Positions 24,469 through 40,674 of a stretch of 41,614 bases of DNA are shown here, one piece after another. The notes below the pieces were generated by a model, which saw nothing but the letters and a program-made list of their open reading frames with translations, was not told the origin of the DNA and did not search any database. Position numbers and translations under genes: made by a program. The number at the start of each line of letters is the position of its first letter. The first letter of the stretch is position 1. The stretch covers positions 1 to 41,614 of the forward strand of contig CAVTZU010000022.1 in assembly GCA_963739305.1 (NCBI GenBank), given 5' to 3'. Source of the stretch: Candidatus Bathyarchaeota archaeon. Lineage in GTDB: Archaea > Thermoproteota > Bathyarchaeia > Bathyarchaeales > Bathycorpusculaceae.

Positions 24469-26127
24469 TTAGTATCTTCCTCTTCCCTTGACCACCAATC
24501 TTAACGCCAACAGTATCAAGAAGGAAAACAGTATTAGATAGCCGCTTCCCAAACCTGCCTCCAAAGGATGCGCAGTGACCCAATTAACGAGGACGACTGG
24601 CGCTGTCTTGAGCGTTGTGACAACAGCTACGGTCGCTCCTGTCTCGCTTACGCTTCTCGTGAACATCATTATTGCTCCCGAAAGTATAGAGTACTTTGTC
24701 AAAGGGAGAACTATTGTTCTGAAGACGGCAAGAGGTCTTGCTCCGAGAGTTCGCGATGCTTCTTCGAGGTCGAGACCGATTCTTTCGACCGCAGCGGACA
24801 TTGATCTGACAAAGTATGGATAGGTTATTGCGACGTGAGCAAAGATCAGGAGCAGTATTTCTGGAATGAAGGTGAAATTGGTTTTCCAGAAGATCCCCAG
24901 TGAAATGCCTAGAGCAATCGATGGGACTACAAGAGGTATATTGACAAGCACGTCTAAGATTGTAGAAACGAACCCGCCGAACTTCTTTCTCGCAATGAGG
25001 ATTGCCATTGGCAAGCCTATAATGATGTTGATGACTGTGACGATTCCGCCGAGGAGATATGACAACACGAGACTCTGCCAATATTGCCCCCAGATTCCTG
25101 ATCCTGCTAAAGATTGTGAGAAAGTTCCTGTGAATACAGCTTGAAAGGCTGGGAGCGCCACGAATAGGGACGGAACGAGGATGATTGCAAAGAAAATGAT
25201 CAATGTTGCAGTGTCCCTTGAAGCCGCCGCTTTCGAATAGCTGATGCGTCGTTCGAGCATCGGCCAAACTCTCTTCATGGGTAGTCTTAGCCGTGGTCCA
25301 ACTATGCGTATAACGAAGAAAATCGCGACCGCGACGACGATGAGAATGAAGCTTGCAAACACGGTCGAGCCTTCGTAGAGAGTTTGACTTACGGTTCCGG
25401 CTGCGTAAGCTTTATTCATGTTCTGTATGAAGACGGGTCCGTTTTCGAAGAATCCCGCAACTATGAACGTGGCTCCCGTTTCGGATATTGATCTTGCGAA
25501 CGCAAGAATGAAGCTGGCGATCAGGGAGGGTTTTATGATGGACAAAGTCACTGTTCTGGATGCGGTGAATGGAGGTGCCCCTAGAGTTCGTGACGCGTTT
25601 TCGTATTCTCTCTTGTAATCCAGCAGGGCACCTACGACTACTCTGACGACAACGGGAAAAGAGAAAGCGAAGTGCAAGAGTATGACAAGCAGCCATCCTG
25701 GAGAAATCAGGGTTCCTCCAAACAGCGCGGATATGCCTTGGGGTTTGTTCCAGAAAAGCAACAATGAGTAGCCGAGAACTGCTGTTGGCACGATGAATGG
25801 AATGTCAGACAGGGTGTCTAGGACGTTGATCCAAGTGGATTTCTTGCGGGCGATGAGCCATGCCATTGGTACGCCGACGACAAGATCGATGGCTGAAACG
25901 AGGAGTGCTATGGTGAAAGAGTTCTGGACGGCTGTGAGTGCTCGGGAGACGTAGCTTGGCTGGTTTAGGAATTGTTGCATTGTGTTCCATTGTGTTGCTA
26001 TTCCAAGCAGGGGCGGAAGGATTATGAATGCGAGGAATACGATTACGGCGATCAAGTAGACCGAGTATTTGATGCTTTTCCGTGAAGAAAGTCTGTAAAG
26101 TGCTGAGACAAACTTGGATTCCGGCAA
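24469..26127 (-). CDS. ABC importer permease with two fused BPD_transp_1 domains (FbpB/ThiP type)
   Basis: Two EAA-like loops (ENASRTLGA, EEASRTLGA); two SETGAT motifs. Confidence 0.9.
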   Translation of the reverse strand: MPESKFVSALYRLSSRKSIKYSVYLIAVIVFLAFIILPPLLGIATQWNTMQQFLNQPSYVSRALTAVQNSFTIALLVSAIDLVVGVPMAWLIARKKSTWINVLDTLSDIPFIVPTAVLGYSLLLFWNKPQGISALFGGTLISPGWLLVILLHFAFSFPVVVRVVVGALLDYKREYENASRTLGAPPFTASRTVTLSIIKPSLIASFILAFARSISETGATFIVAGFFENGPVFIQNMNKAYAAGTVSQTLYEGSTVFASFILIVVAVAIFFVIRIVGPRLRLPMKRVWPMLERRISYSKAAASRDTATLIIFFAIILVPSLFVALPAFQAVFTGTFSQSLAGSGIWGQYWQSLVLSYLLGGIVTVINIIIGLPMAILIARKKFGGFVSTILDVLVNIPLVVPSIALGISLGIFWKTNFTFIPEILLLIFAHVAITYPYFVRSMSAAVERIGLDLEEASRTLGARPLAVFRTIVLPLTKYSILSGAIMMFTRSVSETGATVAVVTTLKTAPVVLVNWVTAHPLEAGLGSGYLILFSFLILLALRLVVKGRGRY

Positions 26128-26234
26128 AGCAACTCCTTTCTTAGGTCCCTCTCGCTACGTTTGCGGTCTTTGTAGCTGAACGTAGCTTTCCTTTTTTCAC
26201 TTGTGGTTTCGGTTCATAAGTTTTCCGCATTGGA

Positions 26235-26304
26235 ATCTGTCAGTTCGCCCGTCGAGTCATGTCATCGCTCACGCTCTATTGACTCTCTGTGTCATCATCC
26301 AGAC
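26235..26304 (-). ncRNA. Box C/D methylation-guide sRNA
   Basis: Minus strand: TCTG-g-ATGATGA (C) cacagagagtcaa TAGA (D') gc-gtga-gc GATGA (C') catgactcgacgggcgaa CTGA (D) CAGA terminal stem; CAAAAGCCTTAAG BRE/TATA about 25 nt upstream. Confidence 0.82.
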
Positions 26305-26432
26305 TGGACTGAGGGTCAGAGTGGACTTAAGGCTTTTGCGCCTTGAGGCTTTTGAAATAGAAAACCTGCGAGTTGCTTCGGTGTGAAGTCTTAATATCTT
26401 GTTTTCTTCAATTTACTCGTGGGGTTTGGCTG

Positions 26433-28214
26433 TTGAAGTACAGTGTCATTGCTGAAGCTTATGAGAAGATTGAAGCCACGACGAAGCGGTTGGAGATGAC
26501 TGATTTGCTGGTTGATCTGCTCAGGAACACTCCGAAGGACGTGATTGAAAAGGTTGCTTATTTGACGCAGGGTAAGTTGTACCCTGATTTTTTGGGTGTG
26601 GAGATTGGTGTGGCTGAGAAGCTTGCTTTGAAGGCTCTAGCCAGAGCGACGGGCAGCGGTCAGACGGTGCTGGAGGAGGATTTGAGGAAGAGTGGTGACA
26701 TCGGTGAGACGGGTCAGAAGTTTATTTCTAAGAAGAGGCAGGTTACGTTTTTCCAGGAAGTTCTGACTGTTGAGAAGGTGTATGAGACGCTTGACAAGGT
26801 TGCGAAGACTTCGGGGTCGGGTGCCGTTGATGCAAAGATGGCGTTGTTGTCGGGTTTGTTGGCGGCTGCGTCTCCGTTGGAAGCAAAGTATGTTTTGCGG
26901 ACGGTGACTGGGAATTTACGGCTGGGCATTGCGGACATGACTGTGTTGGACGCGTTGGCTTTGGCTTATGGCGGTGGCAAGGACGCGCGGGGATTCATTG
27001 AGAGGGCGTATAATATCTGTTGTGATCTTGGGAGGGTTGCGAGGGTTCTTGTTGAGGAGGGTCTTGATGGAATACGGCGGTTTGAGGTTTCGGTTGGTGA
27101 ACCTATTAGGCCAATGTTGGCTGAGCGGCTTTCTTCTCCTGAGGAGATTCTTGAGAAGCTTGGGGGTCGGTGTGTTGCTGAGTACAAGTACGATGGGGAG
27201 CGTCTTCAGGCTCACAAGCGTGGCGATGAGGTCACGTTGTTTAGTCGGCGCGTGGAGAATATTTCTGGTCAGTATCCTGATGCCGTGAAGCTGTTTCGAG
27301 ATTGTGTTGAGGCGAAGGAGGCTATTCTTGAGTGTGAGTGCGTGGCTGTCGATGTGGATACGGGTGAGATGCGTCCTTTTCAGGAGCTTATGCATCGGAG
27401 ACGGAAGCACGGGGTTGCGGAGGCTGTCGTGGATTATCCGGTTTCGTTGTTTGTGTTTGATGCGCTTTTCGTTGACGGGAAGGATTTGACTCTGGAGCCA
27501 TTTCCGGTTAGGAGACAGTGTCTTGAGAAGACGATAGAAGTGGGTGATCGTGTTAGGCTGGCGAAGAGTATTACGACGAGGGATGCTGGCGAGTTGGAGA
27601 AGTTTTTTTTGGAGGCGATTGAGGACGGGTGTGAGGGGTTGGTCTGTAAGTCGGTTGGGGAGGATTCGGTTTATCAGGCTGGGGCGAGGGGGTGGTTGTG
27701 GATTAAGTATAAGCGTGATTACAAGAGTGAGATGAAGGATACCGTTGATTTGGTTGTTGTGGGTGCTTTTCATGGGCGCGGCAAGCGCGCGGGGACTTAT
27801 GGTGCTTTGCTGTTAGCCGCGTACAATGCTGAGAGTGACACGTTTGAGACGGTTACGAAGTGTGGGACGGGCTTTACGGATGAGGATTTGGCGAAGTTGC
27901 CGAAGATGTTGGCGAAGCATGAGCTTAAGAAAAGGCCTTCGAGGGTTGACTCGGTTTTGGAGGCTGACGTGTGGTTTGAGCCTGCGGTTGTTCTTGAGGT
28001 TTTGGGAGCTGAGGTCACTTTGAGCCCGATTCACACGTGTGCTTTGGGTTCCGTGCGGAAGGGCAGTGGGTTGGCTATTCGTTTTCCAAGGTTTACGGGG
28101 AATTATCGGGTTGATAGGGCGCCGGAGGATGCGACGACTTCAGCTGAGATTCTGGAGATGTATCGGGGTCAGTTGAAGAAGATGAGTGAGGTTAAACCTG
28201 AAAGTGCTTCGTGA
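26433..28214 (+). CDS. lig: ATP-dependent DNA ligase
   Basis: EYKYDGER, EGLVCK, WIKYKRDY, IRFPRF; TTG start inferred. Confidence 0.97.
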   Translation: MKYSVIAEAYEKIEATTKRLEMTDLLVDLLRNTPKDVIEKVAYLTQGKLYPDFLGVEIGVAEKLALKALARATGSGQTVLEEDLRKSGDIGETGQKFISKKRQVTFFQEVLTVEKVYETLDKVAKTSGSGAVDAKMALLSGLLAAASPLEAKYVLRTVTGNLRLGIADMTVLDALALAYGGGKDARGFIERAYNICCDLGRVARVLVEEGLDGIRRFEVSVGEPIRPMLAERLSSPEEILEKLGGRCVAEYKYDGERLQAHKRGDEVTLFSRRVENISGQYPDAVKLFRDCVEAKEAILECECVAVDVDTGEMRPFQELMHRRRKHGVAEAVVDYPVSLFVFDALFVDGKDLTLEPFPVRRQCLEKTIEVGDRVRLAKSITTRDAGELEKFFLEAIEDGCEGLVCKSVGEDSVYQAGARGWLWIKYKRDYKSEMKDTVDLVVVGAFHGRGKRAGTYGALLLAAYNAESDTFETVTKCGTGFTDEDLAKLPKMLAKHELKKRPSRVDSVLEADVWFEPAVVLEVLGAEVTLSPIHTCALGSVRKGSGLAIRFPRFTGNYRVDRAPEDATTSAEILEMYRGQLKKMSEVKPESAS

Positions 28215-39645: not shown

Positions 39646-40674
39646 GTGTCTGCAACGCAAGCCGGACCTACAATGCCTTCGATTATTGCGAAGGTCGAGA
39701 ACCTCTCAAAGGCCTTCGGCAAGTTGAAGGCCGTAGATAACGTAAGCTTTGAAGTCAAAATGGGGGAAATTTTTGGTTTCGTTGGCCCTAACGGAGCAGG
39801 CAAGACCACTACCATCAACATGCTTACGACCCTGATCAAGCCTTCATCGGGAAACGCGGTGGTCTGCGGCTATGACATATTCAAGGATGCGAACGAGGTG
39901 CGAAGAAATGTTGGAGTTGTACCGCAGGAGTACACTGCTGACGAGGACATGACTGGAATTAACAACGTCCTCCTCTGCGCTGATCTCTACGGCATACCAA
40001 GAAGTGATTCAAAACCACACGCACAAGAGCTGCTGAAGCTGGTAGAGCTTCAAGACGCTGCAAAGAGGAAGGTGAGCACATACTCAGGAGGAATGCGCAG
40101 GAGACTGGAGCTCGCCTGTGGTTTGATCAATTATCCGAAATTGCTATTCTTGGATGAGCCAACGCTCGGTCTCGACGTTCAAACACGCACTGTGGTCTGG
40201 AAATACATCAAAATGTTAAAAGATGAATACCACATGACCCTCTTTCTGACAACTCATTACCTCGAAGAAGCCGACTCACTCTGCGACAGAATAGCCATAA
40301 TCGATCACGGTCACATCATAAGAATTGGCTCACCTGAAGAGTTGAAGGAAAGCATCGGCGGAGACGTCATCGTGGTCACCCTCAAGGAGACAGAGCCGGA
40401 CATTTCATCCGATATTGCTAACATCAAATTGGTAAAGAACGTTCAGAAGAACGATAACAACTATCGCATAAAGGTGGAGCTCGGAGAGGAAGCCTCCCCA
40501 CAAATCACGGATCTAATTCGATCCAAAGGGCTTCACGTGACGAAAGTCTCGTTGACGAAGCCAACCTTGGACGAGGCATATCTGGAATTTACTGGCCGCA
40601 GCCTGAGGGAAGAAGAAGCTGACAGGATGCAGATGTTCAGACAACGCGTAACGGTGAGAAGAGCAAGATCGTAA
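39646..40674 (+). CDS. DrrA-like ABC exporter ATP-binding subunit
   Basis: GPNGAGKTT, YSGGMRRRLE, LDEPTLGLD, TTHYLEEAD. Confidence 0.94.
   Translation: MSATQAGPTMPSIIAKVENLSKAFGKLKAVDNVSFEVKMGEIFGFVGPNGAGKTTTINMLTTLIKPSSGNAVVCGYDIFKDANEVRRNVGVVPQEYTADEDMTGINNVLLCADLYGIPRSDSKPHAQELLKLVELQDAAKRKVSTYSGGMRRRLELACGLINYPKLLFLDEPTLGLDVQTRTVVWKYIKMLKDEYHMTLFLTTHYLEEADSLCDRIAIIDHGHIIRIGSPEELKESIGGDVIVVTLKETEPDISSDIANIKLVKNVQKNDNNYRIKVELGEEASPQITDLIRSKGLHVTKVSLTKPTLDEAYLEFTGRSLREEEADRMQMFRQRVTVRRARS

Follow-up and report, generated by a model that had tools for sequence, protein, structure and literature searches.

Does a short intergenic segment of an uncultured archaeal genome encode an RNA that could direct methylation in both ribosomal subunits? 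The segment lies in the window analysed here, a stretch of 41,614 nucleotides (nt) covering positions 1 to 41,614 of contig CAVTZU010000022.1 of a Candidatus Bathyarchaeota archaeon (assembly GCA_963739305.1). An initial annotation of positions 26235–26304, made from the letters alone, had proposed an unannotated box C/D small RNA (sRNA) there, with one guide for C1402 of the 16S ribosomal RNA (rRNA) and another for C1920 of the 23S rRNA. The C, D′, C′ and D boxes that it described are all present, on the minus strand, and we are highly confident that the candidate (26236–26303) is a real, conserved box C/D sRNA gene of Bathyarchaeia, a judgement made because the element is conserved in relatives and not because of its complementarity alone. 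The D guide probably directs methylation of C1402, and on balance we expect the D′ guide to direct methylation of C1920 in this organism. Taken as a whole, the reading that we favour, with some reserve, is that of an independently transcribed dual-guide C/D sRNA of about 60–65 nt, predicted to specify Cm1402 and Cm1920 and belonging to a family that is widespread in Bathyarchaeia.

Pairing of the guides with the genome's own rRNAs

The 16S and 23S sequences used for pairing came from the same assembly (contigs C17 and C13, respectively). The core of the D guide, CGACGGGCG, has a perfect complement of 9 base pairs (bp), CGCCCGTCG, found once in the 16S at position 1363, and that of the D′ guide, AGAGAGUCA, has a perfect 9-bp complement, TGACTCTCT, found once in the 23S at position 2043, in helix 69 (H69). 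Both complements that the initial annotation had expected are thus carried by the host rRNAs, and no other Watson–Crick run of at least 9 exists between the 65-mer and either molecule. The duplexes span guide positions 3–11 (D) and 2–10 (D′), so that each guide shows the 9 or more contiguous Watson–Crick pairs near the N+5 position that serve as the criterion for C/D guides in PMC6009581. The N+5 rule, which places the modification across from the fifth guide nucleotide upstream of box D or D′, points to position 1365 of this 16S, equivalent to C1402, and position 2046 of this 23S, equivalent to C1920, in agreement with the earlier proposal. E. coli numbering was fixed for the 16S by U1406–G1410 as printed in PMC5389701 and for the 23S by A1912, given as alignment position A2178 in PMC4644070; a shift by one position in the 23S would give a U, a mismatch with the "C2186" in the table of that paper.

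The 16S target, CCGCCCGUCG, is identical in all 23 of the 16S sequences recovered from relatives, and the H69 target in all 16 of the recovered 23S sequences. Position 1371 of the 16S (E. coli 1408), which pairs with the 5′-most C of the D-guide core, is a G in all 23 Bathyarchaeia 16S inspected. A G at this position is the eukaryote-like state and has a bearing on aminoglycoside sensitivity.

How often such pairing arises by chance was gauged in two ways. Among composition-matched shuffled guides, 9 bp over N+5 were reached by 238 of 5000 for D′, by 349 of 5000 for D, and by both guides together in 14 of 5000. A scan of the whole genome gave 215 C...D box pairs, among which about 0.6 double-guide loci are expected by chance and 2 were observed, one of them this locus; a reversed-sequence control gave none, but from just 64 box pairs. 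The other double 9-bp locus over N+5, on the minus strand of contig C14 outside the window (40155–40205), would pair its D guide with 16S 253 and its D′ guide with 23S 2914, and could be another C/D sRNA that addresses both subunits, or the chance match expected at this threshold. Further C/D-like loci, also outside the window, turned up on plus strands in a crude scan (C4:31358–31415, C23:95273–95322 and C11:151815–151879); the one on C4 has the same layout as the candidate, with an xxGA D′ box, a GCC...GGC mini-hairpin and a C′ box. Probably a modest number of C/D sRNAs of this sort exist in the genome.

Alternative targets that tolerate G-U pairs, such as 23S 2068–2077 for the D spacer (10 bp, 3 G-U, with N+5 at the end of the duplex), occur at chance frequency and were set aside. 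The window holds no tRNA genes, and none of the 37 tRNAs that ARAGORN finds in the genome contains a complement of 8 nt or more; the D′ spacer finds at most 6 nt of complement in a tRNA, and the longest complement of the D spacer, 7 nt, falls outside the N+5 zone.

Conservation and distribution of the family

BLAST searches against 40 relatives returned a full-length copy in 20 of them and, in one more, the 5′ half at a contig end; many of the matches stop at the edges of the RNA (query 25–88). A covariance model added one further relative, and a recognisable copy was absent from 18 of the 40, several of these genomes being incomplete. In an alignment of the 21 BLAST-derived sequences (A1), the blocks GATGATG, GAGTC, GA-GC of the D′ box, TGA of the C′ box, C-CGACGGGC and CTGA are invariant and the A preceding GAGTC is nearly so, leaving the first 4–5 nt after the C box and the linker loop as the variable parts. 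Boxes and guide cores are thus kept in relatives, as the initial annotation required of a genuine sRNA.

Beyond these relatives, a pattern combining boxes and guides matched at least 117 records among GTDB species genomes, and among the matches listed with titles nearly all are metagenome-assembled genomes (MAGs) of Bathyarchaeia or Bathyarchaeota. When 151 evenly sampled genomes of the class were scanned with the covariance model, which was built from A1, 29 contained a family member, this genome included, as did 12 of the 15 from its own family; these counts are lower bounds, 32 first-look candidates having been scored in each genome. By the same kind of search, the sRNA is present in a single copy here.

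Two family members (L069 and L092) lie on contigs of Heimdallarchaeota-titled MAGs and have a D spacer of canonical length and a GAGA D′ box, and a third (L101), on a contig titled as a Limnocylindrales bacterium, is styled like the Bathyarchaeia copies; all three could reflect either mis-binned contigs or a wider distribution. A pattern match in a Thermoanaerobaculia-titled record, which lacks the D′ and C′ features, was taken as chance and removed from the pattern-collected alignment (A2). Beside the partial 16S end of another genome (G022, contig C28) lies a segment whose reverse complement resembles a D′ core fused directly to a D guide, GAGUCUCUCGACGGGCAA; this could be a decayed copy or a chance resemblance.

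The two guides compared

The D guide is the steadier of the two. Its register relative to the D box is constant in every member seen in the printed sequences, a distant variant, CGAUGGGCGGA, keeps that register while pairing through one G-U, and inspection of the 17 distant covariance-model matches found the D guide retained, with N+5 on C1402, in all of them. The D′ position is occupied otherwise in some families: in f14 and f17 the D′ guide is UUCAGCCUU, with 9 bp to 16S 868–876, and in f30 it has 10 bp to 23S 2388–2397, the rRNAs of the present genome serving as proxy for both. Members of f35 (three loci), f27 (one) and f30 (one) have a longer linker hairpin whose loop contains a conserved UCAGCC, which is also the core of the D′ guide UUCAGCCUU of f14 (three loci) and f17 (two); this could reflect a move of the guide to another place in the RNA, or a loop that acts as a third site of pairing.

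Because the covariance model favours the long D-guide block, we also searched in reverse, with a C box, AGAGTCA and xxGA as the pattern. This matched 22 of the 151 genomes, compared to about 9 matches for a reversed-pattern control, and 11 of the 22 were known family members. One of the other 11, in a genome of a sister family (G033, contig C76, 37185–37206 and downstream), is a complete C/D sRNA; the remaining 10, about as many as the control gives, do not show a persuasive C/D architecture and were rejected. The covariance model had picked up no family member in G033. The sRNA there complements H69 over 10 nt, with N+5 on C1920, and has a D′ box, a GC hairpin and a canonical D spacer, together with a different 11-nt D guide that finds no 8-bp match in the present genome's rRNAs.

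The H69 complement is thus found without the conserved GACU segment of the D spacer with which it could otherwise pair (see below) in G033, L069 and L092, the last two retaining AGAGAGUCA itself, and in G033 it is found without the 16S guide as well. For this reason we read the H69 guide as kept in its own right, yet as the more changeable half of the RNA. The guides are exchanged as modules, the D guide being kept while the D′ guide differs between families, and G033 being the reverse case.

The conserved GACU and the internal helix

The four nucleotides GACU in the D spacer, though absent from the search pattern, are at least 90% conserved. With U26259 before them and C26254 after them they form (U)GACUC, the exact complement of GAGUCA at 26280–26285, and the minimum free energy (MFE) fold contains the resulting 6-bp GAGUCA/UGACUC helix, which would extend the non-canonical stem of the internal kink-turn (K-turn) and cover the D′ N+5 nucleotide. 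The initial annotation had suggested that this segment, read as ATGACT, might pair with the far strand of 16S helix 44 (h44). The AGUCGU needed for this is indeed in the 16S of this genome, but AGUC occurs in both candidate partners, so that within this order such pairing and the internal helix are inseparable. In family f35 the printed sequences show an equivalent segment with no complement in the far strand of h44. G151 and G166 keep a 7-bp internal helix made of other sequences. We regard the internal helix as a plausible feature of this subfamily and as a candidate account of GACU with better support than pairing with the far strand.

In seven lineages with other D′ guides the internal helix has just 3–4 bp, which is the level of a partner-swap control (about 3.6). 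The control itself gave 5.5 bp for own segments vs 4.4 bp for swapped ones, and 4.5 vs 3.6 bp, an excess that is modest and confounded by relatedness. One elaboration of the dual-guide reading would make the RNA a cross-subunit assembly device, in which the D guide holds the top of h44 while the D′ guide, once freed from the helix, engages H69, the two modifications being ordered or coupled by this built-in structural switch; we regard this as an improbable refinement.

Anatomy of the RNA and its genomic setting

The coordinates are collected in Table 1. The element has the features by which C/D sRNAs are recognised: a RUGAUGA C box, a CUGA D box, D′ and C′ boxes fit for a second K-turn or K-loop, and a terminal stem. 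That stem, also part of the initial annotation, exists here with 4 bp, of which only the inner two are conserved (paired in 17/21 and 21/21 sequences, against 8/21 and 7/21 for the outer two). The C′ box stands in the table in the register of the family; the earlier reading, CGAUGA, uses the same UGA. Among 112 parsed members, the D′ box at the homologous position is TAGA in 53, CAGA in 29, the canonical CTGA in 19 and something else in 11, and the C′ heptamers include GTGATAT (47), GTGATGT (15) and GTGATAA (15). D spacers of 14–16 nt are a family trait, those of L069 and L092 having 12–13 nt. The two GC pairs of the linker hairpin are identical in 21/21 sequences and so give zero covariation information; the linker is replaced in two members (L042 and L120) by longer stems with a UUCG loop, and members of f35, f27 and f30 have linker stems of 3–4 bp, GCG(C)/(G)CGC.

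Table 1. Features of the sRNA locus in window coordinates.
Feature	Position	Strand	Remarks
BRE/TATA-like element AAAAGCCTTAAG (BRE, B recognition element)	26326–26337	-	27–38 nt upstream of the G starting GAUGAUGA
Terminal stem, 5′ strand UCUG	26300–26303	-	Only UG (26301–26300) conserved; a single G follows before the C box
C box AUGAUGA	26292–26298	-	GATGATG invariant in 21/21 BLAST-derived homologues; Rfam C/D models place the C box here
D′ spacer CACAGAGAGUCAA, 13 nt	26279–26291	-	Contains the H69 guide core
H69 guide core AGAGAGUCA	26280–26288	-	Complements own 23S 2043–2051 (H69, E. coli 1917–1925)
D′ N+5 nucleotide G	26283	-	Pairs with C1920
D′ box UAGA, non-canonical	26275–26278	-	GA and the following GC invariant in A1
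D′–C′ linker GCGUGAGCG	26266–26274	-	Mini-hairpin GC-GUGA-GC, then G
C′ box AUGACAU (family register)	26259–26265	-	Family consensus GUGAU[A/G]U; TGA invariant in A1 and A2
D spacer GACUCGACGGGCGAA, 15 nt	26244–26258	-	GACU and 16S guide core
GACU in D spacer	26255–26258	-	Conserved; outside the 16S duplex
16S guide core CGACGGGCG	26246–26254	-	Complements own 16S 1363–1371 (E. coli 1400–1408)
D N+5 nucleotide G	26248	-	Pairs with C1402
D box CUGA	26240–26243	-	Invariant in 21/21 sequences
Terminal stem, 3′ strand CAGA	26236–26239	-	Only CA (26239–26238) conserved; C and A at least 90%
ABC-transporter permease gene	24469–26127	-	BPD_transp_1; start about 110 nt downstream of the sRNA, same strand
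ATP-dependent DNA ligase gene	26433–28214	+	Pfam DNA_ligase_A_N/M/C; flanks the sRNA region

The RNA had been called unannotated, and no family of Rfam release 15 covers it: the whole window gave 0 matches at gathering thresholds. In a permissive scan only generic archaeal C/D models align with the boxes, sR3 (RF01133) at 19.1 bits vs a gathering score of 41 and sR2 (RF01139) at 17.2 vs 42.

A promoter of its own had also been claimed, and this is supported by 123 unique upstream flanks, free of the constraint of the search pattern, in which a motif keeps a fixed distance (positions are counted from the G starting GAUGAUGA). An A-rich block covers -37 to -35 (A at -35 in 105/123, at -36 in 91/123 and at -37 in 84/123) and a T/A block -31 to -27 (T at -30 in 78/123, G never; A or T at -28 in 110/123), and a T-rich run leads to a G at -1 in 122 of the flanks; the element of this genome, AAAAGCCTTAAG, fits the motif. 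Archaeal TATA elements lie about 26 nt from the start of transcription, a distance that would put the predicted start 1–5 nt before the C box. A T-run is missing from the 60 nt after the D box at 91 of 135 loci, so trimming or read-through probably generates the 3′ end. A scan of 26100–26450 for sigma-70 promoters and intrinsic terminators found none of either, with a tool that does not model archaeal promoters.

The sRNA occupies an intergenic region of about 300 nt. The order of the ligase gene, the divergent sRNA and the permease gene about 100 nt downstream is repeated in relatives: at 23 loci inspected for neighbours the ligase is present in 16 and the permease in 11, and ligase adjacency holds also at loci without the permease. 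Between the sRNA and the permease start lies an 8-bp inverted repeat, GCTACGTT (26154–26161) and AACGTAGC (26179–26186), with a 17-nt loop, and a T-rich run (26187–26198) comes next on the plus strand. It is terminator-like, yet there is no plus-strand gene upstream of it; the simple terminator scan left it uncalled because its loop limit is 8 nt.

Machinery and proposed mechanism

The genome encodes the full machinery for RNA-guided methylation. Genes for fibrillarin (318 bits) and Nop5 (259 bits) are adjacent, L7Ae-family genes are present (103 bits), and all score above curated cut-offs. RsmI, a bacterial stand-alone methyltransferase for C1402, had no match in this genome, which is 97% complete, and the best match to the model of TlyA, its counterpart for C1920, scored 26 bits against a cut-off of 186, so no stand-alone enzyme for C1402 or C1920 is detectable. 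The weak TlyA-model matches (about 26 bits; C6:31629–31802, C3:203–376 and C2:1266–1439) fall in apparently near-identical open frames of 225 amino acids on the three contigs, which suggests a repeated or mobile gene.

Transcription, assembly of the ribonucleoprotein (RNP) and both methylations are predicted here from sequence. L7Ae would bind the terminal C/D K-turn and the internal C′/D′ K-turn, and a Nop5 dimer would carry in two copies of fibrillarin. Each guide would then pair with the precursor rRNA, and fibrillarin would 2′-O-methylate the target nucleotide that the N+5 rule specifies. For the D guide CGACGGGCG the product would be Cm1402, at the top of h44 in the P-site and decoding centre, and for the D′ guide AGAGAGUCA it would be Cm1920, at the base of the H69 loop. 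C1402 and C1920 lie on opposite sides of the subunit interface.

Weighing the explanations

Several observations weigh against a dual-guide methylation RNA. Complementarity to rRNA by itself is weak, merely suggestive evidence: any 9-bp guide was found for 29 of the 215 box pairs in the genome and for 6 of the 64 in the reversed control. There is search bias, in that the pattern used to collect A2 holds the boxes and guide cores fixed, and sequences that keep the D guide are favoured by the covariance model. Structure gives little help, the fold-energy z-score of the 65-mer (-0.59) being uninformative, as is the covariation score of A1 for terminal stem and linker hairpin, which was reached by 23 of 500 shuffles, because the key pairs never vary. 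Both internal boxes are degenerate, the D′ box UAGA being non-canonical and the C′ box AUGACAU a one-off variant within the family. Canonical archaeal C/D guide spacers are about 12 nt long, and the D spacer, at 15 nt, exceeds this (18 nt in the C′ register of the initial annotation). The D′ side is the less secure. The 3′ half of its guide, N+5 included, can pair with the D spacer, and in G160 the internal helix is kept by compensating changes (GAGCUA/UAGCUC) and the H69 complementarity is lost. Different D′ guides occur in families f14, f17, f35 and others. Among 135 parsed members, a few of them mis-parsed, the duplex with H69 has 7 bp in 40, 8 bp in 38, 9 bp in 29 and 10 bp in 2, lengths of 6 and above being in part a product of the selection of A2 with GAGTCA. 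The predicted nucleotide is C1920 in 70 of these members, U1921 in 40 and C1922 in 5, owing to a varying distance between guide core and D′ box.

One alternative is that only one guide works: the D guide would direct Cm1402 while the D′ region served mainly as the GAGUCA/UGACUC helix that stabilises the internal K-turn, its match to H69 being fortuitous or a transient chaperone pairing. The helix over the D′ N+5 nucleotide in the MFE fold, the conservation of GACU outside both the 16S duplex and the search pattern, the lineages that keep the helix with other sequences (G160, G151 and G166), the drifting register, the many members pairing with H69 over 7 bp only, and the roughly 5% of shuffled D′ guides that reach 9 bp would all fit. 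If the helix were purely structural, however, its strands should covary freely, and they are near-invariant in more than 100 species; the conserved A 5′ of GAGUC, unable to pair in the helix, is explained by pairing with H69; and L069, L092 and G033 hold 9–10 nt of H69 complement with no GACU partner. Moreover, lineages with other D′ guides show helices at the level of the swap control, and Cm1920 is reported as a confirmed sRNA-guided site in Nanoarchaeum equitans (PMC5389701). We therefore consider a single working guide a serious but unlikely explanation, and accept the H69 part of the initial proposal in a weakened form: both targets do pair in the organism's own rRNA, but the H69 guide varies more than its 16S counterpart, and the idea of one sRNA serving both subunits had been published before.

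Other explanations are much less probable. The RNA might act mainly as a folding or assembly chaperone, or as a tether on h44 and H69, with no stoichiometric methylation; chaperone roles for dual guides have been proposed (PMC4644070, PMC6009581, PMC5389701), and a 15-nt D spacer with degenerate internal boxes could reduce catalytic efficiency. Yet all members seen, the G-U variant included, have the D guide in one fixed register to the D box, which is what selection on the methylated position predicts, and the genome encodes the complete methylation machinery; we give this explanation very little credence. Still less can be said for a cis-regulatory leader of the permease gene in place of a trans-acting RNA. 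The nearness of the permease start on the same strand, the scarcity of T-run terminators after the D box and the sRNA–permease order at 11 of 23 loci are what a leader would show, but the element keeps C/D boxes and rRNA guides and not a leader structure, and its adjacency to the ligase extends to loci that have no permease; co-transcription with later processing is compatible with the dual-guide sRNA too. A chance cluster of short intergenic motifs with no RNA gene would agree with the expectation of about 0.6 double 9-bp loci among the 215 box pairs and with the unremarkable fold energy. It is effectively refuted, and the least probable of all, given conservation that stops at the edges of the RNA across genus, family and order, the presence of the family in 29 of the 151 genomes of the class, and the promoter motif at fixed distance.

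Comparison with known systems

Neither the two sites nor the principle of one guide RNA for both subunits at their interface is new, since Neq sR20 of N. equitans and reported or predicted archaeal Cm1402 and Cm1920 are already in the literature. The present family adds a second example, after Neq sR20, of an sRNA addressing both subunits at the interface, a clear conserved guide candidate for Cm1402, a modification conserved across domains, and a ready covariance model for annotating a widespread class of uncultured archaea; the current view of C/D RNP function is unchanged. We found no description of C/D sRNAs in Bathyarchaeia in the full-text literature, a coverage that excludes subscription journals and preprint supplements.

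Among bacterial enzymes, TlyA is a stand-alone methyltransferase that makes Cm1920 and Cm1409 and so acts on both subunits at the interface. RsmI is the stand-alone enzyme for Cm1402 (PMC11542601). The two are like this sRNA in addressing the same two nucleotides and unlike it in being protein-only methyltransferases. In eukaryotes C/D snoRNPs make the C1402 equivalent, which is 18S Cm1639 in yeast, Cm1703 in human and Cm1645 in Arabidopsis, the last guided by AtU43 (Table 1 of PMC11542601). The U43-type snoRNAs are thus similar in that methylation is guided by RNA and catalysed by fibrillarin at an equivalent position, but they are eukaryotic and have no H69 guide. The yeast and human guides go by the names snR70 and SNORD43.

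For archaea, Dennis et al. 2015 (PMC4644070) describe H69 as a hotspot of methylation and find few targets in h44. Additional file 1 of that paper predicts the D guide of Pca sR25 on 16S alignment position C1389, which is C1402 (A1408 being 1395), with an asterisk, and the paper predicts the D guide of an "sR35" in another species column on the same C1389. For 23S C2186, which is C1920, it predicts the D′ guides of Sac sR20 (Sulfolobus acidocaldarius) and Mma sR104 (Methanococcus maripaludis). It also tabulates other dual guides that cross the subunits, such as Pca sR16 and Neq sR11, and the Pyrobaculum sRNA sequences published with it likewise contain visible xAGA D′ boxes. Pca sR25 resembles the present sRNA in its D guide to the C1402 equivalent and in its printed D spacer, and differs in that its D′ guide targets 16S C1349 and not the 23S. 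In the tabulated entries the partner guide of Sac sR20 is on 23S U2222 and that of Mma sR104 has no predicted target, so that neither has a 16S target, unlike this sRNA. The Rfam families sR3 and sR2 share the generic layout of C, D′, C′ and D boxes, though by score this sRNA is not a member of either.

The closest parallel is Neq sR20, which guides 16S Gm1530 and 23S Cm1920 (Seistrup et al. 2017, PMC5389701). The authors state that mass spectrometry and RiboMeth-seq confirmed its Cm1920 ("data not shown"), and the helices that hold its two sites approach each other across the subunit interface. The same report detects Cm1402 in N. equitans 16S, identifies no sRNA candidate for it there, and names Iho sR11 as a possible Cm1402 guide in I. 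hospitalis. Compared by described targets, Neq sR20 and the present sRNA both have one guide for each subunit at the interface, directed at 23S Cm1920 and the 3′ minor domain of the 16S; they differ in that the 16S site of Neq sR20 is G1530 beside helix 45, not C1402 in h44, and in that its host is a hyperthermophilic nanoarchaeon.

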